Assembly: GCA_964590105.1 (NCBI GenBank)
Contig: CAZPYM010000003.1
Span: 8,179 to 72,178, forward strand
Direction: 5' to 3'
DNA: 64,000 bases
Source of the DNA: an uncultured Gammaproteobacteria bacterium
GTDB taxonomy: Bacteria; Patescibacteriota; Patescibacteriia; UBA11705; JABHMO01
Below the pieces are notes generated by a model, which was not told where the DNA came from, did no database searches, and worked only from the letters and a program-made list of their open reading frames with translations. Position 1 is the stretch's first letter. Each line of letters begins with the position of its first letter. Shown here one piece after another: positions 2,806 through 17,596 of this stretch. The translations under genes were made by a program, and so were the position numbers.

Positions 2806-3369
2806 TTAGTCGTTTGATTTTTTATAAATGAATATTTGCACGGAATTTTTTTTGTTCGGGAGAGTGTCAACGACTTTTTGGGGCCGCCAGGTGGGAAAGT
2901 AGCTTTCATTAGCAATAACAATCGCGCCGGGTTTTAATTCAGCCAGTAATTTTTTTTCCAGGGGCGGCATTGTCGAATACCATAGGTAAGTAAAAATAAT
3001 ATCTGTCTTGCTTAGGTCCAGATTAAAAATATTTGCCCTTGAAAAGTTTACTCCGCGTTTGAAGAATTTATTTTTGAGCTTGGCCAGGCTAATGCGTAAA
3101 AAATTGTTGTCGCTGGCGTAAACATTTAGTTTTGGAAACCTTTTTTTTAGATTCAGCGAAAACGTGCCGCGCGCGCAACCCAGATCGTAAAAAGTTTTGT
3201 CTTGCAAGCTGTTTTGTTCAATGATTCGATAAACAATATTCTGCGCTTCCCGGTTTGAATTGACGTCATGGCCCAGTATTACCAAATCAAGTAAAAAGAT
3301 AAAACAAAGCAGGGAGATAATTATTAGAATTAGTCCCAAGAAAATTAGAAACACCATGAATAGTGTCAT
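2806..3369 (-). CDS. class I SAM-dependent methyltransferase with N-terminal TM helix
   Basis: Motif I 'YDLGCARGTFSL' (GxGxG-type SAM binding). The N-terminus is hydrophobic. A 4-nt ATGA overlap with the upstream ATP-grasp gene indicates an operon. Confidence 0.7.
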   Translation of the reverse strand: MTLFMVFLIFLGLILIIISLLCFIFLLDLVILGHDVNSNREAQNIVYRIIEQNSLQDKTFYDLGCARGTFSLNLKKRFPKLNVYASDNNFLRISLAKLKNKFFKRGVNFSRANIFNLDLSKTDIIFTYLWYSTMPPLEKKLLAELKPGAIVIANESYFPTWRPQKVVDTLPNKKNSVQIFIYKKSND

Positions 3370-4586
3370 AAATAATATTTTAGTACCATGTTAACTAAAG
3401 CTTTGGCCGGATTTTGCGGCTGGCCATAAGTTGGTCGATGATGCATTTCAATGCAAGGCAGACTATTTAGCTCGAGCACGGCAGACGGCTGATTTTTCCA
3501 GGACTTGGAAATGTCAGCTGTGATAAAATCAAGGCCAACGACCCTGGAGTCAAAATATTTAGCAATGTCAAAGAAAAGTTTAGAATTATCAGGATGCACT
3601 TGATCAGTCACCTCGGCAATGTCGCCGCCATATTTCATAAAAGGATCTTTTTGCAAAAAAATTGTTTTATCCGATTGCGGAATGCTTTGCAAGGTTAGTC
3701 CTTGCTCTGTTAAAAGTGATTCAGAGGCGGTATTAAATTTTAATTTGTGCAAAAATTTTTCATCGCGGCGCGGATCATTGTTTTTTTTCCGGATTAATTC
3801 TTCGATGCAATCTTGTCCGTTCCCTATTACGTGAGCGGAAATTTGTTTGGCGCAGGCCAGAAACGTAAAATCAATTATTGTTGCTCTATGCACGAAGCTA
3901 TTCGGAACAAATTTTTCAATAATAAAGGCCGGTGAGTATTGTCCGGATTTTTTTATGGCCGCGCGCAATTGTTCTGTGTTGTTAATATTGGTTGTGACGT
4001 GCCGACTGACCGAGCCGCTGCGAGGTTTAACAACCAAGGGAAACCCAAGCTGGCTTTCGCCGTAATTTAGGGCTTTGTTTTTTTGCCAAAGCCAGAAAGC
4101 GCGCCCCTCCGCCACCGGAAAGCCGCCTTGCTTCAGTAGTTGTTTGCATTTATGCTTGTCGTCAATCACGGCGGCATTTTTGGAATTGGCGAATTGTGCA
4201 GTCGGCAGATTGTCAAAACGAATTTTTTTACCTTGATAAAACATTTGAAAATGATTGGTCACGCCAAATCGACTGCGTAGAATATTAAAAGTAAATCCGT
4301 GCTTTTTTGCTTCTTCAATAAAATAAAAAGTGCGTAATTGCAATTCGTCATCTGAAAAAGTCTCATCAATCTTTGCGAGATTGATGGCGGTAAAAACATT
4401 TTCCATGATCGCGTCGATTTGACCATCCAGTTTTCTTGACCAATTTCCTGTTGCTTTTGGCAGGAAAACATTGGTAATCAATTCTTCCAGCCAGGTGTGG
4501 ATGTGATGCGACCGCGGCATTTCGCAGTCAGGGCAGTATTTATTGTTGGTATTATTTTGCATAATTAAGCTTGTTTGCTCTTTCAT
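3366..4586 (-). CDS. ATP-grasp domain protein (RimK/cyanophycin-synthetase-like peptide ligase fold)
   Basis: 'GFPLVVKPRSGSVSRHVT' is the typical ATP-grasp phosphate-binding segment, with a later 'VVGLDFI...LELNSLP' segment. 406 aa. Confidence 0.65.
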   Translation of the reverse strand: MKEQTSLIMQNNTNNKYCPDCEMPRSHHIHTWLEELITNVFLPKATGNWSRKLDGQIDAIMENVFTAINLAKIDETFSDDELQLRTFYFIEEAKKHGFTFNILRSRFGVTNHFQMFYQGKKIRFDNLPTAQFANSKNAAVIDDKHKCKQLLKQGGFPVAEGRAFWLWQKNKALNYGESQLGFPLVVKPRSGSVSRHVTTNINNTEQLRAAIKKSGQYSPAFIIEKFVPNSFVHRATIIDFTFLACAKQISAHVIGNGQDCIEELIRKKNNDPRRDEKFLHKLKFNTASESLLTEQGLTLQSIPQSDKTIFLQKDPFMKYGGDIAEVTDQVHPDNSKLFFDIAKYFDSRVVGLDFITADISKSWKNQPSAVLELNSLPCIEMHHRPTYGQPQNPAKALVNMVLKYYL

Positions 4587-4744
4587 CTTAGCAAAAAAAA
4601 ACGGATAATACTAGCGTCGGCAACTTGACGGAGGCCTTGGAAACTGCTAGTATGTAATTACTTATTTTGTTGGAATCAGAAACAAAATAAATTATTTCAT
4701 TTACAATAGGTTTATCCAGAGCCTGAATTAATGAAGTATATAAG

Positions 4745-4821
4745 GGGCCCGTAGCTCAGTTGGCTAGAGCGCCTCGCTTGCACCGAGGAGGTCACAGGTT
4801 CGATTCCTGCCGGGTCCACCA
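4745..4821 (+). tRNA. tRNA-Ala (anticodon TGC)
   Basis: A cloverleaf can be drawn by hand: acceptor gggcccg/cgggtcc with the G3:U70 Ala identity pair, anticodon loop ctTGCac, T-loop ttcgatt, and CCA encoded. Confidence 0.9.
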
Positions 4822-4980
4822 AAAACCATTCACTTTTTTAGAAAGTGGATGGTTTTTGAATTGAGAGGAGTTCAGGTTCGTGGTAAACCATGAACTACTT
4901 ATTTTTTCTGAAAGTGGGTGGTTTTTCGTTATGGGTAAGGACATTAAAGGAGCGTTTTCGCTAAAATTAAATAATACATA

Positions 4981-5009
4981 TTGACAAAAGCATAAAAGTA
5001 TGCTACAAT
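4981..5009 (+). promoter_or_regulatory. sigma70-like promoter TTGACA-N17-TACAAT
   Basis: ttgacaaaagcataaaagtatgctacaat, located 44 nt upstream of the GGAGG SD and ATG of the 5053 gene. Confidence 0.55.
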
Positions 5010-5052
5010 TAAAATTGTAATTTGAATATTGACAATTAATGGAGGAAGAAAG

Positions 5053-5889
5053 ATGAAGGAATTCGTACTGGATTCTGTGACCAAGATGGATGCGGTGTGC
5101 TGGCTGTTTGTCCTGGCCTTTTTCTGCGGCTGCGCTCTGCTGTGCGGCGGTGATGTCAGAATGGCGTTCATCGGAGCCTGGGGCGTGATCGGCACGATGT
5201 TTCTGATCAGCGTCTCAATCGAGATGATCATCGAAACGCTGAAGAACATGCGCGGACTTGGGACTATCGTAGGATTCATTACAAATGGTCCGGAAGCCCT
5301 GTGTCTGATCGTCGGCTTACTGGCTGGCGACGTGCTGTTCGCGGCTTCCACGCCGCTCGGCTCGAACTTCATGAATCCAGTTCTTTTGGTGATTGCCGCG
5401 ATAGTGACAAAGCGAGCGATCGCTACCTGGCGGACGAACAGAGCGTACAGTCTGACCTGCATTGGACTCACGGCTGCATTTGCCGCGGAGTTTTATTTCC
5501 TGCCGGAAAAGCTTTATTGGATTTGGTGGGGAGCGGCGGCGATCATGACGGCTGTCCTGTTTTTTTGGCGGCCGAAAGAGAAAGAGCCTGAGAGCAAGGA
5601 AGAAGCCGCTTTTTCCAAGCTGTGGCTGATTCCCGCAGTGGCAGTAATGCTTACGGCCGGATATTTCCTGGATCCGGTCGTGTCATTCGCTTCGGCGCAA
5701 TCACATGCGCCGAAAAATCTCATCGGGTTCTTGGTTTTGGCCACGCTTACCAGCTGGCCGGAATTCAAGTCCTGCCTGGTCCTTTTCCGAAGGGGCCGAG
5801 TGCTCTCCGCGATTCTCAATATCACGGTGAGCAACATTACCAACATCTGGCTGGCAATGCTCGGTGCCGGGATCTACCTCGTTTTCTAA
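5053..5889 (+). CDS. multi-pass membrane protein, Ca2+/cation antiporter (CaCA)-like; GC-rich gene
   Basis: Start taken at the ATG (5053) preceded by GGAGGAAGAAAG, rather than the track's 5029. Two alpha-repeat-like segments, 'GFITNGPEALCLIVGLLAG' and 'ATLTSWPEF', resemble the G(T/S)SxPE motifs of YrbG/CaCA exchangers. GC content is visibly about 55%, against about 38% in the surroundings. Confidence 0.55.
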   Translation: MKEFVLDSVTKMDAVCWLFVLAFFCGCALLCGGDVRMAFIGAWGVIGTMFLISVSIEMIIETLKNMRGLGTIVGFITNGPEALCLIVGLLAGDVLFAASTPLGSNFMNPVLLVIAAIVTKRAIATWRTNRAYSLTCIGLTAAFAAEFYFLPEKLYWIWWGAAAIMTAVLFFWRPKEKEPESKEEAAFSKLWLIPAVAVMLTAGYFLDPVVSFASAQSHAPKNLIGFLVLATLTSWPEFKSCLVLFRRGRVLSAILNITVSNITNIWLAMLGAGIYLVF

Positions 5890-5908
5890 ATTTCACAAAA
5901 AGAAAAAA

Positions 5909-5943
5909 GGGAGTCATGCATCGCCATGTGTGACTCCTTTTTG
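5909..5943 (+). terminator. intrinsic terminator
   Basis: GGGAGTCA-tgcatcgccatgtg-TGACTCC-TTTTT, directly after the stop at 5889. Confidence 0.7.
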
Positions 5944-5952
5944 ATTTCATTA

Positions 5953-5981
5953 TTGACATTGCAAAGCCTGCCTGATATTAT
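5953..5981 (+). promoter_or_regulatory. consensus promoter TTGACA-N17-TATTAT driving a non-coding transcript
   Basis: ttgacattgcaaagcctgcctgatattat. No ORF with an RBS follows; a terminator lies about 200 nt downstream. Confidence 0.55.
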
Positions 5982-5988
5982 GATAGCG

Positions 5989-6196
5989 ACAACCTCAAAA
6001 GCGCTTGATCTTAGCTATCCCTAAGAGAGCTCAAAAAGCGCGCTGCCAAAAGAACCCTTTCGACGTTGCTCAGGGGGAGCGCGGAGAATCGTTAGTAGAT
6101 TTGGCCGGGTAAGCCCGTAACAGCCGTTAATTAAGTAAAAGCTCAAGCTGGTACCTTCTGGCATTGCAGAAGCTTGGCACGCCGAGCTTTTTTTGT
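5989..6196 (+). ncRNA. candidate small structured RNA (~200 nt; identity unresolved, SRP RNA or 6S-like possible)
   Basis: Bounded by the promoter above and by the hairpin AGCTTGG-cacg-CCGAGCT plus T7 terminator (6171-6196). It is GC-rich relative to its flanks. It contains GGCCGGG-UAAG-CCCG-UAACAGCC, a short hairpin with a 3' asymmetric UAACA bulge, loosely reminiscent of SRP domain IV. The only ORF here (6021..6209, minus strand) has no support. Confidence 0.4.
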
Positions 6197-6214
6197 TTGT
6201 ATAAGACAAGATAA

Positions 6215-6275
6215 GGGTACTTAGCTCAGTCGGTTAGAGCGTACGGTTCACATCCGTAAGATCACAGGTTCGAGC
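6215..6275 (+). pseudogene. truncated tRNA-Val(CAC)-like 5' fragment (acceptor 5' half through T-loop; no 3' T-stem or acceptor strand)
   Basis: gggtact-ta-gctc-agtcggtta-gagc-g-tacgg-ttCACat-ccgta-agatc-acagg-ttcgagc is followed by ataatgcc..., not by cctgt + agtaccc. The cloverleaf cannot be closed. Confidence 0.55.
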
Positions 6276-6384
6276 ATAATGCCTCACGGTTTATAAATGG
6301 AAGCTAAAATCGATAAGATAGAGTTTAGTAGTTTTCGGTCTCCATGTCACTATTTATTAGGCAGTTAAATTTTTATAATTTTAT

Positions 6385-6885
6385 ATGATAGATATTAAGC
6401 CAATTAAACAATCTGTGGGAATGTGTGGCCCTATTTCCTTTAAGATGGTTATGGATTTTTACGGATTTGACAGGCCCGTAGAGTATTGGAAAGAGGTAAC
6501 TGGAAAAGAGTTTATCAATGGTGATACTGGAGCCGTTGAATTTGGATACTGGGATGAAATGTTTGTAGACAACGTCAAGAAATTAGGTTATCAAGGTTTT
6601 TGTAAGGACAATTCTAGCATTGACGAGATTAAAGATTATATTAGTAGAGAGATTCCGGTAATTGTTAATTGGTTTTCTCCTGAACAAGGCTCTCATTTCT
6701 CGGTGGTGTCGGGTGTTGAGGGAGATAAAATTTATTTTGCTGATCCATGCTTTGGTGAAATCAAGGAATATAACGTAAATTGGTTTTTGGAAAGATGGTC
6801 GGACCATGGATTGGTGCCAATGGATTATCCAGATAATGATCCAGGCTGGGTGCATAGAATATGCGTAGTTTATCCTAATAAGTAA
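6385..6885 (+). CDS. peptidase C39-like (papain-fold cysteine peptidase) domain protein
   Basis: 'SVGMCGPISFKMVMDFYG' matches the C39 catalytic-Cys region (nDCGpaaL..l.yyG), and the downstream 'GSHFSVVSGVEGDKIYFADP' matches the His region. 166 aa, standalone, with no ABC transporter fused. Confidence 0.55.
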   Translation: MIDIKPIKQSVGMCGPISFKMVMDFYGFDRPVEYWKEVTGKEFINGDTGAVEFGYWDEMFVDNVKKLGYQGFCKDNSSIDEIKDYISREIPVIVNWFSPEQGSHFSVVSGVEGDKIYFADPCFGEIKEYNVNWFLERWSDHGLVPMDYPDNDPGWVHRICVVYPNK

Positions 6886-6971
6886 AAGTATGGCCATAAC
6901 TCTTTGCAAAAAAACATTGAAGCAATTAGAGAAGTCAATACTCAGGGCTGGTTAGGGCGCAGTTTTTTTAT

Positions 6972-7048
6972 GGTTGCTTAGCTCAGTTGGTTAGAGCGCT
7001 GCACTCACATTGCAGAGGTCCTGGGTTCAAATCCCAGAGCAACCACCA
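6972..7048 (+). tRNA. tRNA-Val (anticodon CAC)
   Basis: Acceptor ggttgct/agcaacc, D-arm gctcagttggttagagc, anticodon stem-loop ctgca-ctCACat-tgcag, T-arm ctggg-ttcaaat-cccag, CCA encoded. Confidence 0.9.
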
Positions 7049-7136
7049 AACTTTTAATCATTTAAACAAAAAACATTTATTTACTACTGGTTTTACTTAT
7101 TTTTTTTATAATTCATTATTAATTTATATTTATTTT

Positions 7137-10100
7137 ATGAAGGAAAAATCGCTGTTTGCGCAAAATGAAGAAAAAATAATTAATTATTGGGAAGAGAAAA
7201 ATATTTTCCAAAAAACTTTGGACAAAAAATCAGCCAAAGGCAATTTTATTTTTTTTGAAGGCCCGCCGACCGCCAATGGGAAACCTGGTATTCATCATAT
7301 TCTAGCGCGCGCTTTCAAAGATGTTATTCCGCGGTTCAAAACAATGCAAGGCTATCATGTTGAAAGAAAAGCCGGCTGGGATACGCACGGCCTGCCGGTT
7401 GAGCTTCAGGTTGAAAAAGAACTGAAAATTTCTGGTAAACCGGACATTGAAAAATATGGGATTGAAGAATTTAATACTAAATGCAAGGAAAGCGTTTGGA
7501 AATATAAAAAAGAATGGGAAGAAATGACTCGACGGATTGCTTTTTGGTTGGACATGGAAGATCCATATGTCACTTATTCCAATGATTATATTGAAACGCT
7601 GTGGTGGATTTTGAGTGAAGCAAATAAAAAGGGTTTGGTTTATAAAGGTTACAAAGTTGTTCCTCAATGTCCGCGTTGCGGCACGGCTCTTTCTTCGCAC
7701 GAAGTGGCACAAGGTTACAAAAACGTGGAGGAAAATTCAGTTTATCTTAAATTCAAAGTTAAAGGCGAACAAAATACTTATATTCTTTCGTGGACAACAA
7801 CGCCGTGGACATTGCCCGGAAATGTGGCGCTCGCAGTTGGAGAAAAAATTGATTATGTGAAAGTTGATTATCAGGGAGACAAATTAATTTTAGCCAAGGC
7901 TTTGATTAATGATGTTTTTGACGGGCCAGTAAAAGTTGTTGAAGAAATAAAAGGAGCAGATTTGGTTGGCTTGGAATATGAACCATTGTTCCCGGGCGCA
8001 TTAGATCCCGGCGACAAAAAAGCCTGGTACGTTGGCAAGGCGGATTTTGTTTCAATTACAGACGGCACGGGCGTGGTGCATACGGCGGTAATGTATGGTG
8101 AAGATGATTTTCAATTTGGTTTGGAAAATGATTTGCCGTTTGTTCATACTGTGGAAGAAGACGGGACGTTCAAGCCGAGTGTTGCAAAGTGGGCGGGAAA
8201 GTTTGTCAAAGATCCGGAAGTTGAAAAACAAATTGTTAATGATTTAAAAGAACGCGGTTTATTATTCAAGGAAAAAATATACGCGCATGATTATCCTTTT
8301 TGCTGGCGTTGCGACAGTCCGCTCCTTTATTACGCGAAAGATTCTTGGTTTATAAAAATGACAGCCTTGAAAAATGAGATGATTGATAATAATGAGCAAA
8401 CCAACTGGGTGCCTGAACATATTAAGCACGGTCGTTTTGGTGAATGGTTGGAAAATATCAAAGACTGGGCAATTTCGCGGCAGCGATATTGGGGTACGCC
8501 GATCCCGATCTGGGAATGCGAAGATTGCAAAGCGTTTGAAGTGATTGGTAGTTTTGAAGATTTGGGCCAAAAAGCGTGTAAAAAAATTACCAGCCTGCTT
8601 TTTGTGAGACATGCGGAGAGCGAGAAAAACGTTCTGGGTTTTAAATCCTGTAGCTTAGACAAGCATCCGCTCACGAAAAAGGGAATTAAACAGGCGGAGC
8701 AAATGTCCGGACAATTGAACAAAGTTGATTTAATTATTTCGTCGCCGGTTTTGCGGGCGAGGCAAACGGCGGAAATAATAAGTAAAAAACTAAAAGTGGA
8801 GGTTGTTTTTGACGAATTGATTTCTGAGCATAATGTCGGGAAGTGGAATGATATTTTGAAAGAGGATTTGGAGAAAGATAATAAAGAGTATGGCGAATAC
8901 AGCCAGTTGCAGGGAGAACGAAAATATGATTTCAAGTCCGGCATTGATGGAGAATCTCGCCGGGAAGTTGTGGCGCGGGCAGAAAAATTTATAAAGAACG
9001 TAGTATCAAAGTACGCTGGTAAAACGGTCCTGATTGTTGGGCACGGTTGTACCTACGGAGCCTTTTCCAAAGTAATAAATAATTGCAGTTATGAGGAGTT
9101 TTTCCAAAAAGAAAACATTAAATTCCAAAACGTAAAAAGTTTTCAATTGGATGAGGATGGAAAATTGTTTGATCCGCACAAGCCGTTCATTGATTCATAT
9201 GAGTACGGTTGCAAATGCGGTGGCCGGATGAAGCGCGTGCCGGATGTTTTTGATTGTTGGTTTGATTCCGGCGCCATGCCTTTTGCTCAGTATCATTATC
9301 CGTTTGAAAATAAAAAATTAATTGACGCGGGCGAGCAGTATCCAGCGGAATATATTTCCGAAGCAATTGATCAGACGCGGGGCTGGTTTTACACTTTGCT
9401 CGCGATTTCCACTTTGCTTGGCAAGGGCGCCTGTTATAAAAATGTGATTTGCCTGGGGCATATTCGCGATAAGGAAGGAAAGAAAATGAGTAAATCAAAA
9501 GGCAATGTTATTGATCCCATGACAATCATTGACCAGTATGGAGTTGATGCTTTGCGCATGCATTTGTATACGATCAATCAGCCGGGCGATCCAAAGAATT
9601 TTGATGAGAACTCGGTTAAAGATGTTTTGCGGAAAACTGTAATGCTTCTTGGAAACGTGGTTAACTTCTATATGATGTATGGGGAAGGTAAAAGTCCAAA
9701 GATAAAAGGTAAAAGTAATAATGTGCTGGATGTATGGATCGGAGCAAAATTAAATTTGTTGATTCAAGATGTGACAAAAGATTTGGAAGATTATCATATT
9801 TTCGAGGCGGCCAGAAATATTATTGAATTTATTGATGAGCTTTCGACCTGGTACGTGCGGCGTTCGCGCGAGCGATTTAAAGCTGAGGGCGAAGATAAGG
9901 AAAATGCGGTGGCAACTTTGAATTTAGTTTTGGGTGAACTGGTGAAATTAATCGCGCCGTTTATGCCATTTGCCGCGGAAAGTTTTTATCAGAAACTTGG
10001 CAATGAAAAAGAATCAGTCCATTTGGAAGACTGGCCGGTGTTTGATGAAAAATTAATTGATGAAACTGTTTTGAAAGACATGGAATTAGCTCGGCAAGTT

Positions 10101-10583
10101 GTTGAACTTGGATTGTCTGCGCGTGATGAAAAACAAATTAAGGTTCGACAGCCATTGCAAACACTTGAATACGATGGAAAGAAATTTGACAAGGATTTAG
10201 AACAAATAATTGCGGAAGAGCTGAATGTTAAAAACGTTGAAAATGTAAAAGTTGTACAAGGTGATAATTTGGTTATCAAAGAAGCGGGGGGCGTTGTAGT
10301 TGGATTAAACATTGAATTAACTGAAGAACTTAAACTTGAAGGACTGGTTCGTGAATTAACTCGTCAGATAAACAATCTTCGCAAAAATCAGGGATTAACC
10401 AGGGATGATCAGGTTAAATTGATTTATAGCACAGAGGGCGAGCAGTTGAAAAAACTTTTTGCCAATGCCGAATCAGTTGAAAGGTTGAAGCAGGCGACTT
10501 TGTTGTCCGGAGTTGAAGAGGGTAAGGGAGCGAATAAGGTTAAAGTGAATGATGAAGAGGTTGAAGTAGAACTATTGAAATAA
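7137..10583 (+). CDS. ileS: isoleucine--tRNA ligase (type 2 / eukaryote-like IleRS) with an inserted histidine-phosphatase (PGAM-like) domain
   Basis: The track ORF (6987..) begins inside the tRNA-Val; the ATG at 7137 (MKEKSLFAQNEEKIINYWEE) is the plausible start. Class I motifs are present: 'PTANGKPGIHH' (HIGH), 'WDTHGLP', 'WISRQRYWGTPIPIW', 'DCWFDSGAMPFAQ', 'GIDQTRGWFYT', 'KMSKSKGN'. Between 'IGSFEDL' and 'DPHKPFID...CKCGGRMKRVP' lies a roughly 190-aa insert containing 'LLFVRHAESEKN...PLTKKGIKQAEQ...SSPVLRARQTAEII...LIVGHGCTYGAF'. Confidence 0.9.
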   Translation: MKEKSLFAQNEEKIINYWEEKNIFQKTLDKKSAKGNFIFFEGPPTANGKPGIHHILARAFKDVIPRFKTMQGYHVERKAGWDTHGLPVELQVEKELKISGKPDIEKYGIEEFNTKCKESVWKYKKEWEEMTRRIAFWLDMEDPYVTYSNDYIETLWWILSEANKKGLVYKGYKVVPQCPRCGTALSSHEVAQGYKNVEENSVYLKFKVKGEQNTYILSWTTTPWTLPGNVALAVGEKIDYVKVDYQGDKLILAKALINDVFDGPVKVVEEIKGADLVGLEYEPLFPGALDPGDKKAWYVGKADFVSITDGTGVVHTAVMYGEDDFQFGLENDLPFVHTVEEDGTFKPSVAKWAGKFVKDPEVEKQIVNDLKERGLLFKEKIYAHDYPFCWRCDSPLLYYAKDSWFIKMTALKNEMIDNNEQTNWVPEHIKHGRFGEWLENIKDWAISRQRYWGTPIPIWECEDCKAFEVIGSFEDLGQKACKKITSLLFVRHAESEKNVLGFKSCSLDKHPLTKKGIKQAEQMSGQLNKVDLIISSPVLRARQTAEIISKKLKVEVVFDELISEHNVGKWNDILKEDLEKDNKEYGEYSQLQGERKYDFKSGIDGESRREVVARAEKFIKNVVSKYAGKTVLIVGHGCTYGAFSKVINNCSYEEFFQKENIKFQNVKSFQLDEDGKLFDPHKPFIDSYEYGCKCGGRMKRVPDVFDCWFDSGAMPFAQYHYPFENKKLIDAGEQYPAEYISEAIDQTRGWFYTLLAISTLLGKGACYKNVICLGHIRDKEGKKMSKSKGNVIDPMTIIDQYGVDALRMHLYTINQPGDPKNFDENSVKDVLRKTVMLLGNVVNFYMMYGEGKSPKIKGKSNNVLDVWIGAKLNLLIQDVTKDLEDYHIFEAARNIIEFIDELSTWYVRRSRERFKAEGEDKENAVATLNLVLGELVKLIAPFMPFAAESFYQKLGNEKESVHLEDWPVFDEKLIDETVLKDMELARQVVELGLSARDEKQIKVRQPLQTLEYDGKKFDKDLEQIIAEELNVKNVENVKVVQGDNLVIKEAGGVVVGLNIELTEELKLEGLVRELTRQINNLRKNQGLTRDDQVKLIYSTEGEQLKKLFANAESVERLKQATLLSGVEEGKGANKVKVNDEEVEVELLK

Positions 10584-10652
10584 TTTGCAGGTAAATATAA
10601 AAAAGAATGGGATTTTCCCGTTCTTTTTTATTAGCGGAAATAGTTAGTCTGA

Positions 10653-11918
10653 TTATTTTTTATATAATTTCCTAAATATTTTCGTTTCGCCGGCTTTTTT
10701 AAGGGCACTTAAAAATCTTGACCTTAGTTGTTCATTGGCGATCAAAAATTTTGCGGGACTTAGCGCGAGCAAAATACCCAGAAGGCGACGCAAGAGCTCA
10801 TTTGTCCATAGGGCATAATTGTCAAAAATATAATTTTGCAGTTTGCCTTTTTCAATAGCATTCAAAACACATCTTTCAAAAGTATTTTTTGGAACAAAGG
10901 CGGTTTTTGGGCGTCTTTTTATTTCAATCGCCTTGGTATTGCAATCTCGATGACAGACACCGCAACCCAGGCATTCGGATAAATCAATTTCCGCTTTTTT
11001 ATTTTTAATTTTAATAATTTCAAGCGGACATTTCTGGGCGCACAGTCCGCAACCGGTGCATTTTTCTAAATTAACTTCAGCAAAAAAACTGCTGCTCAGC
11101 CGATCATAATCACCGATTTTTTTGTACGCCAATATCGCCTCGCAACAACAGCCGCAGCAATTGCAAATCCAGCCCACACCCTCTTGGGTATTGTCGCCGA
11201 TCTGAACGAGACCATAATCAACGCACTGGTCCAGTATCCGGTGAGATTCTTCCCTGGAAATTTTTCTGGCAATGCCGTGTTTAGTCAAGGTTTTTGCGGC
11301 GTTATTAAAAGTCAGGCAAACATCCTGCGGTGCCTCGCACGCTTTGCCTATGTGTTCCATTTTGTGTCGGCAATAACAGATGCCCACTGCGTGGCAAGTT
11401 GCAGTATTAATTACTTCACTGGCTTTTTCATAATTAAGAATTTCGGAATTTTCGGTCAGGCTTTTTTCGTGAACAAAGGTGCGCGCCATAGAAGTTTTTT
11501 GATTCATGGTTTGCTCGACAAAGTCATCCTCTACATTAATATATTGATAATAAAGCTCTGACAATACCTGGCGGTCAAACTTGCCGTCCGTTCTCATCAG
11601 GGAAAATTCAAAAAACCCGGCCATGGTCGGTGCCATTGTATAGGTTTGGTTTTTCCCATCATAAATATCGAATAAAATTCCTTTATCTGCCAGCTCGTTT
11701 AGAGTTTTTTGAGCTTCAGTCGCTGAAGTCTCCCAGCGTTTAGCGGCCAGCTCAACTGAAAATGGTTTTATCGGCAATAGTGAAACTTTTTCAGCTTCGT
11801 CTTTGGTAAATAAGATTTCCAGAATTTTAAACAACGTTTCTGACTCGGGCGCGCCTTGGGCATTCATGTCAAGACGTTTTTGAAGTTTTAAAAATGATTT
11901 GGAGGTTATGTGGCCCAT
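10653..11918 (-). CDS. 4Fe-4S cluster-binding protein (two ferredoxin-type CxxCxxCxxxCP motifs plus an extra Cys cluster)
   Basis: 'CTGCGLCAQKCP', 'CLGCGVCHRDC' and 'CNCCGCCCE' are present; the N-terminal half is non-Cys. Confidence 0.6.
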   Translation of the reverse strand: MGHITSKSFLKLQKRLDMNAQGAPESETLFKILEILFTKDEAEKVSLLPIKPFSVELAAKRWETSATEAQKTLNELADKGILFDIYDGKNQTYTMAPTMAGFFEFSLMRTDGKFDRQVLSELYYQYINVEDDFVEQTMNQKTSMARTFVHEKSLTENSEILNYEKASEVINTATCHAVGICYCRHKMEHIGKACEAPQDVCLTFNNAAKTLTKHGIARKISREESHRILDQCVDYGLVQIGDNTQEGVGWICNCCGCCCEAILAYKKIGDYDRLSSSFFAEVNLEKCTGCGLCAQKCPLEIIKIKNKKAEIDLSECLGCGVCHRDCNTKAIEIKRRPKTAFVPKNTFERCVLNAIEKGKLQNYIFDNYALWTNELLRRLLGILLALSPAKFLIANEQLRSRFLSALKKAGETKIFRKLYKK

Positions 11919-12168
11919 AGATTTTCAATTGTTCGTGATAAAAATCAACTCAAAAGTAAAGTGATTGTATTTTAACTTAAATCCAAGATTTTTTCAATGA
12001 ATTGCCCGGGGTTTGTCGGTGGAGTTTGTGATTATAGAAGGAAATTAGTTAATCCTCGATAAATTGAAGTTTGAAAGAGTTGATAAAAAAATATATGGTT
12101 TTTTTGTTGTATAATTACCATAATTTTGGAGCCAAAATGGAAATATGTGCGTACGCATAATCCAGCCC

Positions 12169-12197
12169 TTGACAAAATTATAGTTATGTGCTATACT
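12169..12197 (+). promoter_or_regulatory. consensus promoter TTGACA-N17-TATACT
   Basis: ttgacaaaattatagttatgtgctatact, immediately upstream of a roughly 600-nt GC-rich non-coding stretch. Confidence 0.55.
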
Positions 12198-12203
12198 GTG
12201 GGC

Positions 12204-12808
12204 GCGATTGTAGCTGATGAGAGCTGGCTACGCAACGTCTTTGTGAAGGGCTTCGGCACCCTAAATATGGGGTGCGGGAGCATGGTCAAAAACCTGCGGC
12301 GAAAAAGGAGGAAAGAATGTGTCGATAGAGGAAGCGTCTCGGAATTGTAAGCCGCCGAGGCGTGGATACAGGGGATGAAAATTCCTGAGGGTTTACCGGC
12401 GCAAGTGCATAAGCGCGCAATATGTGCGTGGGATGTGGCCTGTTGGATCAGTGAAAGCAAGTAAGCGGCCAGCAAAAAACTGAATGCCGTTTGAAAGCAA
12501 GTAATTGGGTTAATGGGCTCCCTGGTGACAGGGAATGACTGCATCCATGTCGGAGTCTCTTTCCCGTGGCTCGCGGCGGCTGTAATAGTCCACCGTAAAT
12601 CGCACTGGGAAATGTCAGGTTCCGGCGCGTCGTTAGGTTCGCCACCAAAGCACTCGAGGCGCAAGTTTGTCAGCGGCGCTGTGCCGGTTAAACAGCGAAA
12701 CTGAATAGGTTTTTCCTGGACGCCGAGAATGAGATCAGGACTCCGGACGCGGAGGCAAATAATACGTTTCTGGGACGAGTCGCAACATGCGGCTCGTCCC
12801 AATTTTTT
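12204..12808 (+). ncRNA. rnpB: candidate RNase P RNA (bacterial type A-like), possibly with leader/insertions
   Basis: A GC-rich block of ~600 nt (~55% GC) with no convincing ORF, framed by the promoter and a strong terminator (GGGACGAG-tcgcaacatgcgg-CTCGTCCC-aaTTTTTTT, 12772-12809). Several segments resemble conserved E. coli M1 RNA regions:
- AGGAGGAAAG, near CR-I GGAAAG
- GGAUCAGUGAAAGCAAGUAAGCGG, compared with GGAUCAGGUAAGGGUGAAAGGGUGCGGUAAGAGCG
- GGCUGUAAUAGUCCACCGUAAAUCGCAC, compared with GGCUGGUAACAGUCCGUGGCACGGUAAACUCCAC
- ACAGCGAAACUGAAUAGG, compared with GCAAGGCCAAAUAGGGG
- CAGGACUCCGGAC, compared with ACAGAACCCGGCU
The P4 pairing could not be verified by hand. Confidence 0.5.
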
Positions 12809-12962
12809 TGTTTGTAAAAAATGAAGTTTGTGATAGTATTAAAGAAGATAAGGTGGACTTCTTGGCCGTGCGGCGGATCGCCGCAAAAGCGTTGTTGAAT
12901 TTATAGTTTTTAATTTTGGATTTTGTTTGGACTTTGGACTTTGAACTTTGAGTTTTAAAAAT

Positions 12963-13592
12963 ATGGACATTGGGATTGAAAGAGCTGTTACTAATTCAAA
13001 AAAAGGATTTTCCAGATTCGGGAGAAGAGTAATTTTTATTTTTTTGATTTTTTGTTTTATTGTTTTATTGATTTTGTGGCGCGTTCAGTTTAAATACAGT
13101 TACAAAATAATTAATGGTAATGATCTGACTCCGCCAAACATTGGTTTGGTTTTTGGCGCGGGGCTGAAAGCCAAGGGCGTGCCGGGAGCAGTTCTGGAAG
13201 ATCGAATTTTAACTGCGATTAAACTTTATCAGGACGGAAAGATCGGAAAGTTTATTTTTAGCGGCGACAACAGCACCGCCGGACATAATGAAGTAAAGGC
13301 CATGAAGAATCTGGCGATAGAACTGGGATTGCCGGAAGACGCTATTTTGGAAGACCATGCCGGCCTTAGTACGCGGGAAAGCTGTTTGCATGTGAAAGAA
13401 AATTTTGGATTAAGCGAAATAATTTTAATAACTCAGAAATATCATTTGCGTCGGGCGCTTTATACTTGTAATGAACTTGGAATTGACGCGGAGGGCGTAG
13501 CGGCGGAAAATCGCGGCTATCCTAATCAATGGAAATACAGCCTTCGCGAGCTTGGCGCCAGCGTAGCGGCGTGGCTTAAAATAAAAGGCTGA
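12963..13592 (+). CDS. DUF218 / YdcF-SanA family protein with N-terminal TM
   Basis: 'GDNSTAGHNEVKAMK' and 'LITQKYHLRRAL' are typical of the YdcF/ElyC fold. The ATG at 12963 is preferred over the upstream TTG at 12948. Confidence 0.6.
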   Translation: MDIGIERAVTNSKKGFSRFGRRVIFIFLIFCFIVLLILWRVQFKYSYKIINGNDLTPPNIGLVFGAGLKAKGVPGAVLEDRILTAIKLYQDGKIGKFIFSGDNSTAGHNEVKAMKNLAIELGLPEDAILEDHAGLSTRESCLHVKENFGLSEIILITQKYHLRRALYTCNELGIDAEGVAAENRGYPNQWKYSLRELGASVAAWLKIKG

Positions 13593-13667
13593 TTGGTTGT
13601 TGGCTGAGGCAGTTTCATTTTGATCAACCAATTAACCAATTAACTAATTAACCAATTAATAATAATT

Positions 13668-14609
13668 ATGACTGTAGAACAAATTTTCAACCTGGCAATT
13701 CAACTTGGAATCAAGGCTGACCTGCGCGGCGAGAAGCGCGTCTTGCATTTGCAAAAAAAGCTGAAAGAAAAATACGAAAAATTAACAGCGGACAAGAAAA
13801 AAGATTTTGACAAAAGTCGATTAGATAATCCGTATCCTGATTCGCAGATTTTGTTTGATTCAAAAAAAGAAGTTAAGAAAGTTTTGTGCGGCATTGATAT
13901 TGACACTTCAGAATTGCTGTTAGCCAAGGAATTGGGCGACATTGATTTGGTAATATCGCATCATCCTATTGGTAAGGGACTGGCTAATTTGGCGGACGTC
14001 ATGCCTTTGCAGGTGGAAGTTCTGGCGGATTACGGCGTGCCGATTAATATTGCGGAGGGCTGTTTTAAAATGCGAATTGACGAGGTGGCGCGCGGCGTCA
14101 GTCCGATCAATCATTACAAAACCGTTGATTCGGCGACTCTTTTGAAGATCAGCCTCATGTGCGCGCATACGCCGTGCGACAATTTAGTGGCGTCATTTTT
14201 GAAAGATAAAATTCTCCGTAAAAAATTTGAATATGTATCTGAGGTTCTGGAATTATTGGAAAGTATCCCGGAATATGCCGAAGCAAAAAAAAGAGGCGCG
14301 GGGCCCAGGTTGTTTGCCGGGTCGTCGGAAAATTTTTGCGGCAAAATCGCCTTGACCGAAATTACCGGCGGCACGGAAGGCTCGGCAAAAATTTATGAAA
14401 AAATGGCGCAGGCTGGGATCGGCACGATCATTGGCATGCATATGAGCGAGGAGCACAAAAAAGAAGCGGAAAAAAATCATATCAACGCCATTGTCGCCGG
14501 CCATATTTCTTCGGATTCAATCGGTGTGAATTTATTTTTGGATCAATTGGAGAAAAAAGGGATTAAAGTGATAACAAATTCCGGTTTGATTCGGGTGAAG
14601 CGGAAATAA
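13668..14609 (+). CDS. Nif3-like dinuclear metal centre protein (GTP cyclohydrolase 1 type 2 homolog)
   Basis: 'DLVISHHP' (metal-binding HH, compare E. coli YbgI 'VIVHHG') and C-terminal 'AGHISSDS' (compare AGHHATE). Confidence 0.65.
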   Translation: MTVEQIFNLAIQLGIKADLRGEKRVLHLQKKLKEKYEKLTADKKKDFDKSRLDNPYPDSQILFDSKKEVKKVLCGIDIDTSELLLAKELGDIDLVISHHPIGKGLANLADVMPLQVEVLADYGVPINIAEGCFKMRIDEVARGVSPINHYKTVDSATLLKISLMCAHTPCDNLVASFLKDKILRKKFEYVSEVLELLESIPEYAEAKKRGAGPRLFAGSSENFCGKIALTEITGGTEGSAKIYEKMAQAGIGTIIGMHMSEEHKKEAEKNHINAIVAGHISSDSIGVNLFLDQLEKKGIKVITNSGLIRVKRK

Positions 14610-14675
14610 TTAAATAGAGGATACAAAAAGATGCTGTTGAAAATTCAGCATCTTTTTTATTAAAGATGTTTGGGA

Positions 14676-15080
14676 TTAGTCTACGGTTTGGAGGATAGCT
14701 TGTGAAGAAACCGTCTGAGCTTTCCCTAAATATTTTTTATTCAGATCTTCGATTGCCAGATAATATTCATCCCAGAGGTTGTCTTTGCTTGTCAGGTCAG
14801 TCGGAGGAATAGCTTTTATTTTTAGGCGCAGAGCGTCGGCCAGAGCTTTTTTCTTTTGTTTTAATTCTAATGACAGTTCATCAAAGCCCGTACTGATTGT
14901 CGCTGTTGCGGTCAGCGCTTTTGTTGTCCTATTTTCAACTTCTCTCGCCAAGGCGGCATCGAGCGCCTGATAAAAAGAATCAGTAGCGCCTTCTTTTTCA
15001 AATAAATCAATAAAGGTCCTTTTTTCATCATCTGTTAAAAAGGAGGTATTAATGAAATCGATTATAGTTTTTTCTTCCAT
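14676..15080 (-). CDS. hypothetical protein
   Basis: 134-aa ORF immediately downstream of the 15082 gene on the same strand; acidic/helical; no motif. Confidence 0.45.
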   Translation of the reverse strand: MEEKTIIDFINTSFLTDDEKRTFIDLFEKEGATDSFYQALDAALAREVENRTTKALTATATISTGFDELSLELKQKKKALADALRLKIKAIPPTDLTSKDNLWDEYYLAIEDLNKKYLGKAQTVSSQAILQTVD

Positions 15081-15081
15081 A

Positions 15082-15951
15082 TTATTTTCTAAAAGTGTTT
15101 AGATACAAAGCTGCGGTTTTTCCGCTGGCCCCAAATAGTTTGGCGGCGGCGGCTGTGCCTGCGCCAAGAGCTTTTAGTGAAGATTTCATGGCTGAGAAAA
15201 AACCATTGAGATTCCTTTGTTGCAATACCTGCCACGCTCCGCCCAGAATACCGCCGAGCATTTTCATCGGCGCATCCAGGAGCATTACTTGTAACGATTC
15301 AGCGGAAGTTTTTTTGAGTTGTTCAAGGGATTTTTCAAATTGCAATTCCCTTCCAAACATTCGTTCGTGTTTTTCCAGGTTTTGTTTTGATTGAAAAAGT
15401 TTTCCGATATCAGCGCCCATTTCCGGATGGGATCGTAAAAGTGCTTCAAGGTCGTCCGTATTAGACATATTGCTTGTGATGTCCAGATTTAGGCGCCTTA
15501 ATAATCGATTCATCATTTCAATGTTTTCAGCTGAATCCTCAATAATCGCCCGGTCAGGTGCGTCGCCGTTAAATTTTTTTTGATAATATTTTTCTTGTTG
15601 TTTTTCCTGAGCCGCTGAAACAGAGAAAGTTAAATTGCGAAATACGGCCGGATTTTTAGCATCTGTTGTTGCCCTGTCTGTTGCTGATTTTGATAAAGTT
15701 TCATTAATTGCCGCTTGGAAATCGCGCCATTTTTTTGAATCAGAATCCAGGGCGCCAGTTCTGGTTTCCCGGCCGACGGAGCTAATGTAATCGTTAAAAA
15801 TTTTTTTTTCTGCAACTTCTCTTGTCGTGCCATGATCTCGCGCATAGTCATCAACCGTATTGCGGAATTTTACCTCCGGTCCGCGACCGACGATTTTTTC
15901 GCCGGTTTCCTTGAGAAATTTGCCTGCTTTTTCGAACACCATATGATTCAA
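15082..15951 (-). CDS. hypothetical protein
   Basis: 289-aa ORF with coiled-coil-like composition; no motif recognised. Confidence 0.45.
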   Translation of the reverse strand: MNHMVFEKAGKFLKETGEKIVGRGPEVKFRNTVDDYARDHGTTREVAEKKIFNDYISSVGRETRTGALDSDSKKWRDFQAAINETLSKSATDRATTDAKNPAVFRNLTFSVSAAQEKQQEKYYQKKFNGDAPDRAIIEDSAENIEMMNRLLRRLNLDITSNMSNTDDLEALLRSHPEMGADIGKLFQSKQNLEKHERMFGRELQFEKSLEQLKKTSAESLQVMLLDAPMKMLGGILGGAWQVLQQRNLNGFFSAMKSSLKALGAGTAAAAKLFGASGKTAALYLNTFRK

Positions 15952-16420
15952 GAATTATATCTGTAATATGTTTCGATTATAGCTGAAATAACTGTTGTTG
16001 TAAATAAGATTCGATCTTTATCGACTTATGACAAAAGAGTGGCGATTTCATCGTCTATGCCATAGAACCATTTGGATTTTATATAATGAAAAAGGTATTA
16101 TTGACAAATTGCAGCATTTTAGCTATTATTTAATGTTGACGTAACAGATTAAATTTAGTTTCGTCATATATAATGTATGAATTGGAATAAACACAATTAT
16201 CTTATGGTCATGGGCACTGATTGCACATCAGCTGCTGTTTTTGGCATTCAGCCGAAAACAAGCAAAGCTGGTTTGACCAGAAAGATTATTGGGATAATTG
16301 TGTTTAAATATTTAAACTAGATTCTTCTTCCATAACCAATAATGCGTCTGGCCGGATCGGCTTGACGCATTTTTGATTGCGTACAGGACGGTTTGCCAAA
16401 AAAACAATGGAGGTGTCGCT

Positions 16421-17596
16421 ATGGTGCGAAAAATTGTCCGCAGCTATCTGATTTTTAATGTTCTTTTCAATTTAGCTTTTTCTTTTCACTTCGCTACGTT
16501 TGTGCTGTTTTTGCGCCGCAATGATATGAGTATAACGCAAATCGGCTTTATTAATTTTGCTTTTATGATTGCGGTTTTTTTGTTTGAAATTCCGACCGGC
16601 GTGGTGGCGGATCGTTTTGGCCGCAAAGTATCGGTTGTGCTCGGCACGTTTGTGGCCAGTCTCGGGTTTTTGTTTTATTTTTTGAGCAATGGTTTTTGGC
16701 AATTTATTTTGTCGGAAAGCACGATCGCTCTCGGATCCAGTTTAATTTCAGGCGCGCTGGATGCTTGGATTAAGGATTCGCTGGATTTAAATGGCTACAA
16801 AAAAGACATTGGCGTTATTTTTTCCTGGGGCGATATAGCTATCAAGGGCGCCAGCTTGGCCGGCGGAGTGGTCGGCGGAATTATTGCCGTGGGAAATATC
16901 CGATTGCCCTGGCTCATGTCATCAATCGGGCTCGTGATTTGCGGAATTGTGGCGTTGAAAATAATTCGCGAGGATTATTTTACCGACAAAAAAACATCCA
17001 TGATGGATATTTGTCGGCAAAGCGTGCGCTATGGATATAAAAACAAACAGATCTGGACATTGATCTTGATAGGAAGCCTGCTGATGTTTTTTTTCCAGCC
17101 CTTAAACATGCAGTGGTCAATTCTGTTTGACCAAGCTTATGGAATCGGCGTTCTTTGGTTGGTCTGGACCGGTATCAGAGTTTTTGAGATGGTCGGTATT
17201 TTTATTGCCGGCAAACTAATGAATAGAGGATTTGATCGAGCTCGGATCATGTCATTCTCTATAATTCTGACCGGCGCGGCGATTGTTCTGGCGTCTATTG
17301 TGCCTTATGCTGGCCTGACACTGTTCGCTTTCTGGATTCACGAATCCGGAAGAGGATTTTTCGCGCCGACGCAAAAAGCCTATCTGCATGACAATATTCC
17401 GTCGGACAAGCGGGCGACCATTGGTTCTTTTAATTCAATGATTGCAAAGCTTGGCGCGGCCGCAGGTTGGCTCGGCGGCGGACTTCTTGCCGAAGTGATA
17501 GGCATTAAACCATGCTGGCTTTTGGCCGGAATATTGCTTTTCGTCGTATTGCCATTGGTTGGAAAATTAAAAAATAAATCCAACCGGGCAATTTAA
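16421..17596 (+). CDS. MFS transporter
   Basis: 'FEIPTGVVADRFGRKVSVVLG' is the MFS signature between TM2 and TM3, with roughly 12 hydrophobic segments. The start is taken at the ATG (MVRKIV) preceded by GGAGG. Confidence 0.75.
   Translation: MVRKIVRSYLIFNVLFNLAFSFHFATFVLFLRRNDMSITQIGFINFAFMIAVFLFEIPTGVVADRFGRKVSVVLGTFVASLGFLFYFLSNGFWQFILSESTIALGSSLISGALDAWIKDSLDLNGYKKDIGVIFSWGDIAIKGASLAGGVVGGIIAVGNIRLPWLMSSIGLVICGIVALKIIREDYFTDKKTSMMDICRQSVRYGYKNKQIWTLILIGSLLMFFFQPLNMQWSILFDQAYGIGVLWLVWTGIRVFEMVGIFIAGKLMNRGFDRARIMSFSIILTGAAIVLASIVPYAGLTLFAFWIHESGRGFFAPTQKAYLHDNIPSDKRATIGSFNSMIAKLGAAAGWLGGGLLAEVIGIKPCWLLAGILLFVVLPLVGKLKNKSNRAI

Follow-up and report, generated by a model that had tools for sequence, protein, structure and literature searches.

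Partial tRNA genes at the borders of genomic islands and prophages are familiar marks of recombination: a fragment broken in the region of the T-loop lies beside accessory DNA whose genes are absent from related genomes. T-box leaders, the second kind of element relevant here, precede aminoacyl-tRNA synthetase or amino-acid genes and have as part of their discriminator a 7-nt bulge with UGGN at its 5' edge followed by ACC (PMC7583486). Elements resembling both occur side by side in a 64-kb stretch of contig CAZPYM010000003.1 (the window, by which we mean the whole stretch of DNA analysed), from a bacterium of the candidate phyla radiation (CPR)/Patescibacteria with a tiny genome. The 5' 61 nt of a tRNA-Val(CAC) gene, termed the stub (6215-6275), follow a T-box-like leader of ileS and precede a stand-alone C39-like cysteine peptidase gene, an intact tRNA-Val(CAC) gene and ileS itself. 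All of these features lie on the + strand, and coordinates are those of the window unless a label such as L003 assigns them to another retrieved locus. A sequence-only reading had described the stub as a tRNA-Val(CAC) 5' part without its 3' strands and had taken it, together with the intact gene, for the usual footprint of site-specific integration or excision, or for a partial tRNA duplication. The description holds on direct inspection and in ARAGORN and Rfam analyses. For its origin we favor another account, in which the stub is probably the non-functional relic (pseudogene) of a second tRNA-Val(CAC) gene, of the canonical type.

Anatomy of the stub and the two tRNA-Val(CAC) types

Read directly, the stub runs GGGTACT-TA-GCTC-AGTCGGTTA-GAGC-G-TACGG-TTCACAT-CCGTA-AGATC-ACAGG-TTCGAGC, comprising the 5' strand of the acceptor stem, the D-arm and the CAC anticodon arm, both perfect, the variable loop and, from the T-arm, the 5' strand of the stem and a loop of 7 nt. 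It ends with the last base of that loop. The expected CCTGT and AGTACCC(A) do not come next, and the sequence that does (ATAATGCCTC...) is unable to pair with ACAGG or GGGTACT. Among the matches listed in a scan for the anticodon arm, 118 intact genes sharing this arm continue ...GGTTCGAGC|CCTGT..., which places the break in the stub exactly at the boundary of T-loop and T-stem. The missing 3' piece, CCTGTAGTACCCA (the expected 3' half is also written CCTGTAGTACCCACCA or CCTGTAGTACCC(A)), is absent from the 64-kb window, where allowing up to three mismatches gives 4 hits against 4.7 expected, none of them nearby; the search for a matching 3' piece that had been suggested thus returns chance-level hits within the window.

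ARAGORN calls six tRNA genes in the window and, at default settings, none over the stub; of the two tRNA-Val(CAC) sequences only the one at 6972-7048 is called, as expected for one pseudo-tRNA and one intact gene. An intron-containing cloverleaf across 6215-6320 would have spoken against a truncation, but no credible one is found with introns allowed (-i, -i0,800) or with a relaxed threshold (-ps80), the only extra call being a spurious 'Thr(agt)' at -ps80. The Rfam tRNA model scores the stub at 33.8 bits against a gathering score of 29, and in its alignment the 3' T-stem and part of the acceptor are marked as unpaired. The stub therefore has the D-arm, anticodon arm and valine anticodon of a functional tRNA, and lacks a closed acceptor stem and T-stem. 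At variable-loop position G46 (fragment nt 47) it carries an A, where 118 of 118 intact genes among the matches listed have a G, and we take this as a mark of relaxed constraint or decay. Transcripts without an acceptor/T-arm stack are not processed by RNase P, do not receive CCA and are not charged, so the stub, having neither this stack nor a CCA end, would be inert in all three respects.

Is the stub a copy of its neighbor? Stub and intact gene agree at 40 of 61 positions, and their longest likeness is the universal D-arm (21/22), with no other shared run. The closest intact gene among the matches listed agrees with the stub at 57 of 61 positions, that of Kuenenbacteria L126 at 55, and the intact canonical genes in the same set at a median of 51/61, against a median of 41/61 for the intact neighbor compared with that set. 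The stub's anticodon arm recurs identically in at least 119 genomes (scanned with one genome per species), including Kuenenbacteria L126, Falkowbacteria L116, Uhrbacteria L115, Magasanikbacteria, Chloroflexota and Clostridia. The intact gene has the anticodon stem CTGCA/TGCAG, and its 3' strands CCCAG and AGCAACC pair with its own 5' strands, not with those of the stub; it is therefore no hybrid. These comparisons assign the stub to the clade's usual ('canonical') tRNA-Val(CAC) type and the intact gene to a second type, the two not being repeats of one another. Neither the usual footprint of integration nor a partial duplication is supported by such a pair. We also attempted to name a donor of the stub and abandoned the attempt, the anticodon arm being too widespread, in at least 119 genomes of many phyla; the GGGTACT acceptor occurs in no gene among the matches listed in that scan.

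The intact tRNA-Val(CAC) gene (6972-7048; ARAGORN; Rfam 74.6 bits) has counterparts. L143 and L144 carry a second-type tRNA-Val(CAC) directly upstream of ileS, with an isoleucyl-tRNA synthetase (IleRS) 74% identical to that of the window. L143 is collinear with the window at 72% DNA identity through the tRNA interior and the spacer into ileS, and its tRNA-Val matches the intact gene in the D-arm, the anticodon arm (GCGCTGCAYTCACATTGCAGAGG) and the variable loop. This collinearity indicates that the pair of intact tRNA-Val and ileS is common to another lineage. By homology, then, the intact gene is probably a resident partner of ileS and is unlikely to have arrived together with the peptidase gene. 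An origin of the intact gene by anticodon shift from tRNA-Val(GAC/TAC) was also considered; the best match is 58/77, to one tRNA-Val(GAC) in L133.

Some smaller features surround this pair. In L143 (3940-3990) the stretch from tRNA-Val to ileS contains tandem AAACTTTAC/AAACTTTAT repeats, and the 27-mer TTTTACTTTATGAACTTTATAAACTTT is common to the spacers upstream of ileS in L143 and L003, the latter having the T-box leader there, not a tRNA. The 20-mer CTCAGGGCTGGTTAGGGCGC (6941-6960), 11 nt before the intact tRNA-Val of the window, is similar to the D-arm of a tRNA (17/18, allowing for a 2-nt gap; repeat family D7). The best of 500 shuffles reaches the same alignment score, 23; on this marginal evidence the 20-mer is possibly a second tiny tRNA scar.

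The inserted segment and the ileS leader

The distance from the U-run of the leader to the ileS start codon is 940 nt in the window (6197-7136). In L006, the homologue of window 5950-6196 runs directly into the ileS start codon. Since the tRNA-Val-ileS pair is shared with L143/L144, not all of the 940 nt are new. The strain-unique part is 6197-6971 (~0.76 kb), containing the stub, a 109-nt AT-rich spacer (6276-6384; G+C 0.28) that shows no similarity to any retrieved sequence, the C39-like gene and 86 nt more. Stub and peptidase gene are absent from the corresponding site in all relatives found (L137, L139, L003, L006 and L143), the nearest of which, L137, has 79% IleRS identity. The empty-site comparison proposed in the sequence-only reading thus came out as anticipated, and with both elements missing from every relative found, the description of the region as a decayed remnant is reasonable. 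The same reading had reported no integrase, and none is detected with Pfam within ~10 kb on either side.

As that reading had also stated, the gene between the two tRNA sequences encodes a 166-aa C39-like protein (6385-6885). It matches PF13529 (Peptidase_C39_2) with an E-value of 6.6e-12 and 46.6 bits (cut-off 24), PF12385 (C70) with 34.7 bits (cut-off 19) and PF03412 (C39) with 24.2 bits (cut-off 22). An N-terminal Q-x4-C (KQSVGMCG) and a later histidine (GSHF) would be the catalytic residues. Homologs with 49-65% identity are found in unrelated surroundings that contain no nearby tRNA, for example flanked by ruvB and yebC in L009 and, in L012, among clustered small open reading frames (ORFs) with an Rce1-like protease gene; no C39 gene stands beside a tRNA in L009-L015 or at any of the 119 tRNA-Val loci listed. 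Judged by this patchy distribution, the gene is accessory in behavior, and it represents the cargo of the insertion. We considered a phage origin for the insertion and rejected it: viral contigs scanned with the stub, the intact tRNA (two pattern lengths) and the C39 protein gave zero hits, and INPHARED phages and PLSDB plasmids gave only generic matches at the level of tRNAs.

The same spacer is occupied differently in L137, where a Peptidase_M15_4 gene (L137 6193-7001) lies immediately 3' of the leader U-run and ends 16 nt before ileS. Together with the C39-like gene of the window, this indicates that peptidase genes have entered the interval between leader and ileS on at least two occasions. 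Foreign genes can evidently be accommodated in the short spacer that separates a riboswitch-type leader from its synthetase gene.

What lies upstream of the insertion? The sequence-only reading had counted a 'small RNA' there among the accessory elements. This RNA is the T-box-like leader of ileS (5985-6196), which is conserved upstream of ileS in six other related CPR lineages; it precedes ileS directly in L006, L003, L139 and L136, abutting it in the first three, and abuts the M15-ileS arrangement in L137. When metagenomes were scanned with the leader motif for further relatives, two contigs matched, both ending before any downstream gene. We identified the leader by synteny and manual structure, drawing on per-sequence folds and pair counts. 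A sigma-70-like promoter precedes it (5953-5981; TTGACA, 17 nt, TATTAT, with a TG extension; 11/12 match), and its hexamers are conserved in the L006 alignment. Stem I consists of 6 bp (6009-6014/6021-6026) closed by the loop CUAUCC, with AUC at 6017-6019. Throughout the seven sequences this loop reads YUAUCN with an invariant AUC (Ile), and the stem covaries. Further downstream follow an F-box-like motif (GCCGTTAATT, 6123-6132; consensus GCYGTNAATT), helix A1 (6143-6148/6172-6177), a 7-nt bulge UGGUACC (6149-6155) that is invariant in 7/7 sequences, and helix A2 (6156-6160/6167-6171). The leader also carries the invariant TAAGCCNGTAA. In the window, a terminator hairpin at 6168-6191 shares bases with the 3' strands of A2 and A1 and has a U-run behind it; it is weaker in some relatives. 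In the seven-sequence alignment, pairs of IIA, A1 and A2 are 92% paired, versus 84% in shuffles, six pairs have changed on both sides, and sliding the partners lowers the paired cells to at most 55%.

The leader therefore has the position at an aminoacyl-tRNA synthetase gene, the discriminator and the predicted isoleucine specifier of a T-box. The Rfam T-box model RF00230 matches neither the window nor the six relatives at the gathering score or at E-values up to 10, and for this reason we call the leader a T-box-like element, not a confirmed member of the family. From 6200 to 7137 the + strand has no predicted promoter-like site. In that arrangement the C39-like gene, tRNA-Val and ileS may all depend on read-through of the leader terminator from the promoter at 5953.

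Origin of the stub

We propose the following history. A recombination event would have joined a canonical tRNA-Val gene to the segment carrying the C39-like gene, breaking the tRNA at the T-loop/T-stem boundary, so that the 3' T-stem strand, the acceptor strand and CCA were lost. The resulting ~0.76 kb would have been wedged between the leader terminator and the resident pair of second-type tRNA-Val and ileS, with the stub at its left edge. Loss of the canonical gene would have been tolerated given an intact isoacceptor 700 bp downstream, assuming that the two were redundant. We lean towards this account of the stub as a dead canonical tRNA gene with some, though far from full, confidence.

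Several observations weigh against it. Decay is marked by a single substitution, and the stub is accordingly either young or constrained. No relative with more than 79% IleRS identity was found, and no intermediate state was seen, be it leader, intact canonical tRNA-Val and ileS, or leader, second-type tRNA-Val and ileS without the C39-like gene; the order of events can thus only be conjectured. The canonical tRNA-Val genes of the relatives L126 and L116 lie in other neighborhoods, none of which is represented in the window (a tblastx comparison for a native neighborhood of the canonical gene within the window gave no synteny). The canonical copy sits 18 nt past the leader terminator, and the proposed history does not account for its route there. 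Because no relative has a canonical tRNA-Val at this site, either two events took place here or a block already truncated was imported. The window covers 64 kb of a contig of at least 594 kb, and the missing 3' piece or an integrase could also reside elsewhere in the genome.

An alternative that we regard as unlikely, but worth setting out in full, is that the stub is a decayed attL. A tyrosine or serine recombinase would have acted on a canonical tRNA-Val(CAC), with its crossover in the T-loop, and later deletions would have removed the 3' end of the element, the integrase and attR, leaving the C39-like gene as the last cargo. The stub breaks exactly at the T-loop, which is reportedly a favored crossover location for integrases that target tRNA genes; the C39-like gene is patchy and accessory, it and the stub are absent from relatives, and scars containing partial tRNA copies are known at tRNA-Val(CAC) in L126 and L062 and at tRNA-Ala, both as a degenerate 3' duplicate in the window and as copies flanking a GIY-YIG gene in L003 (described below). 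The empty site in relatives that an integration predicts is present, but the other expected traces are not. No integrase or recombinase was found within ~10 kb on either side by Pfam searches of the ORFs at 10-918, 933-2252, 2806-3369, 3366-4586, 5053-5889, 6385-6885 and 7137-10583 and of Pfam hits over window 4700-16885 (locus L001). The repeat analysis of the window detected no att-type direct repeat of a tRNA segment at the other end of the insertion, no 3' piece occurs in the window, and a comparison of the leader tail with the region before the intact tRNA, made for a target-site duplication or other likeness, showed T-runs only. As a rule, an integration event restores the tRNA and the piece left behind is 3' and not 5'; the partial tRNA-Val copies in L126 and L062 are indeed 3' pieces. 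A decayed attL would require two further deletions, as well as a canonical tRNA-Val at the site beforehand, which no relative shows.

Could the stub be functional after all, as the 5' part of a split tRNA whose other half is supplied in trans, or as a structured 5' untranslated region or processing signal for the C39 mRNA? All base pairs of its D-arm and anticodon arm are preserved, the stub belongs to a putative transcription unit and has no promoter of its own, and all recovered copies are identical. These copies all come from one strain, however, so their identity is uninformative on conservation or selection, and the stub is absent from relatives. The folding of 6197-6400 is no better than that of shuffled sequence (z = -0.27). 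Split tRNAs are not known to be divided at 60/61; those of Nanoarchaeum are divided in the anticodon loop. The 64-kb window holds no matching 3' half, and one could lie elsewhere in the genome. With an intact isoacceptor adjacent and G46 mutated, a functional element of either kind is highly improbable.

Partial tandem duplication of the neighboring tRNA-Val(CAC) has in its favor the same anticodon, the same strand, a distance of 757 nt and a similar 5' region of 30 nt (repeat family D1), but we believe it to be almost certainly wrong: beyond the low identity reported above, the two sequences differ in acceptor stem, anticodon stem, variable loop and T-stem, the D-arm stretch common to them recurs in tRNA-Ala as well, and the stub is far closer to the tRNA-Val genes of other genomes among the matches listed than to its neighbor. 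That the metagenome-derived sequence is a chimera of two contigs joined through similar tRNA sequence is barely conceivable: two Logan contigs, L002 and L140, stop within the intact tRNA at 7017, and the first base of L001 is 4700, 45 nt before tRNA-Ala, breaks which suggest branching of the assembly graph at or near tRNA genes, but both stub junctions (6197-6215 and 6275/6276) are spanned at 100% identity in four other assemblies from different pipelines (an ENA MEGAHIT contig, two Logan run assemblies and a JGI metagenome; L001, L002, L140 and L141), the likeness between the two tRNAs of 22 nt is far below k=141, and the junctions are no assembly artefact.

Returning to the stub as a relic of the canonical gene, we speculate that two processes may be combined at this locus: displacement of a tRNA gene caught midway, with the canonical tRNA-Val(CAC) killed and the second-type partner of ileS replacing it, and a leader that heads one unit of stub, C39-like gene, tRNA-Val and ileS. 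This joint proposal is tentative, and we would sooner expect it to fail than to hold in full. If it were true, expression of a valine tRNA and a peptidase would require read-through, with uncharged tRNA-Ile as the trigger.

The wider locus and comparison with known systems

The left landmark of the variable interval is an intact tRNA-Ala(TGC) (4745-4821; ARAGORN; Rfam 64.8 bits), which is conserved in L003, L006 and L137; the interval from it to the leader varies across the clade. It is followed by a GC-rich gene for a Na_Ca_ex-type cation exchanger of 278 aa (5053-5889; PF01699), outside the new insertion. The closest homologs of this transporter, at 73%, 73% and 68% identity, are in CPR contigs (one named Kuenenbacteria), and the next, at ~60%, are from Desulfobacterota. 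These CPR contigs are syntenic with the window, sharing the genes for a methyltransferase, an ATP-grasp protein, tRNA-Ala(TGC), the transporter (L003 3456-4295; L006 1511-2368) and ileS. The G+C content at third codon positions of the transporter gene is 0.56-0.68 in three diverged CPR lineages (0.68 in the window), against 0.31-0.39 for ileS. Shared synteny and this composition in three lineages identify the transporter as an old shared acquisition, not part of a recent islet, and by its homologs it looks like a cross-phylum acquisition whose composition has not drifted to that of the host. The proposal of a tRNA-associated accessory islet at 4.7-7.1 kb therefore survives in part: the stretch with the stub and the C39-like gene is strain-specific, but tRNA-Ala, transporter and leader are shared with L003 and L006.

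Further tRNA scars were noted in the window and its relatives. At 4864-4926, 69 nt past the original, the tRNA-Ala 3' part (variable loop, T-arm and CCA) recurs in degenerate form together with the downstream terminator hairpin; an alignment score of 56, against a maximum of 30 in 500 shuffles, marks this copy by sequence likeness as a second tRNA scar at the locus. In L003 (1990-2583), an ORF for a 92-aa GIY-YIG nuclease (2224-2499; Pfam E 6.8e-15) stands between the intact tRNA-Ala and a second copy whose D-loop and T-arm contain inserts of ~30 nt and ~19 nt; upstream (L003 1990-2050), the D-loop insert recurs in another 5' piece of tRNA-Ala. In Kuenenbacteria GW2011_GWA2_42_15 (L126 4581-4771), an intact canonical tRNA-Val(CAC), with a LytR-type gene upstream, is followed after 90 nt by a 25-nt 3' fragment of a different allele (GGTTCGAGCCCAGGTGCGACCACCA) and then by an N6_N4 DNA methylase gene, an arrangement that, judged from its layout, is an att-like scar at the same tRNA species. 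A metagenome-assembled genome of Omnitrophota (L062 209-405) has an intact tRNA-Val(CAC) and, ~40 nt later, a 5'-truncated copy running from D-loop to CCA with a different acceptor stem. Taken together with the T-loop break of the stub, these cases mark tRNA genes as recombination hot spots of the clade.

Downstream of the intact tRNA-Val, ileS (7137-10583) encodes an IleRS of 1148 aa, identified by Pfam and by its homologs, with a His_Phos_1 domain inserted at residues 487-657 (Pfam E 2.3e-31). Its nearest homologs (73-79% identity, ~960 aa) are without the insert, which is present in many more distant CPR IleRS proteins (50-61%), one of them also with NUDIX-type domains. The T-box-like leader and a synthetase carrying a histidine-phosphatase domain are more noteworthy than the stub. 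Elsewhere in the window, a very AT-skewed stretch on the - strand (2356-2508) holds a 50-aa ORF made up almost entirely of KKRKAAP repeats.

How does the locus compare with described systems? As a tRNA pseudogene at a recombination junction, the stub adds one more case to a known class of features. It shares with the pseudo-tRNAs of island and prophage borders a partial tRNA next to accessory DNA, a break in the T-loop region and an accessory gene missing from relatives, and the tRNA-Val(CAC) scars of L126 and L062 are similar. It is unusual for its kind in that the surviving piece is the 5' one and not a displaced 3' part, and in not repeating the neighboring intact gene. Unlike those border elements, it is accompanied by neither an integrase nor a second att copy, and its function would be covered by a different, resident tRNA-Val(CAC) and not by a rebuilt hybrid. 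By itself, such a dead stub would be a routine scar in a genome; here it serves as a marker, and it illustrates that tRNA-Val(CAC) genes turn over in these reduced genomes, two types being present at this locus and one of them dead. The peptidase, for its part, resembles stand-alone members of the Peptidase C39-like family, matching Pfam above the curated cut-off; here it is not fused to an ABC transporter, and no gene for a double-glycine peptide lies beside it in the window.

For the leader, the closest described system is the ileS T-box with an 'ultrashort' Stem I from Actinobacteria (Sherwood et al. 2015, in PMC7583486), at least as that class is presented in the review. Like the leader, it is located upstream of ileS and combines a short Stem I bearing AUC in its terminal loop, an F-box-like motif, and A1 and A2 separated by the 7-nt bulge UGGUACC. 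The leader differs in being missed by the Rfam T-box model, in its CPR/Patescibacteria host and in the 940 nt, including a tRNA gene, that separate it from ileS in the window. It also differs in its probable mode of action. The G+C-rich hairpin and U-run in the window imply transcription attenuation, whereas the actinobacterial short-stem class, in the account given there, acts on translation. Transcriptional T-boxes generally need a long Stem I, and a short Stem I together with an intrinsic terminator is an unusual combination according to the same review (PMC7583486). If the leader works as its structure suggests, T-box regulation would reach into the Patescibacteria, in a form thought unfavorable for transcriptional control.

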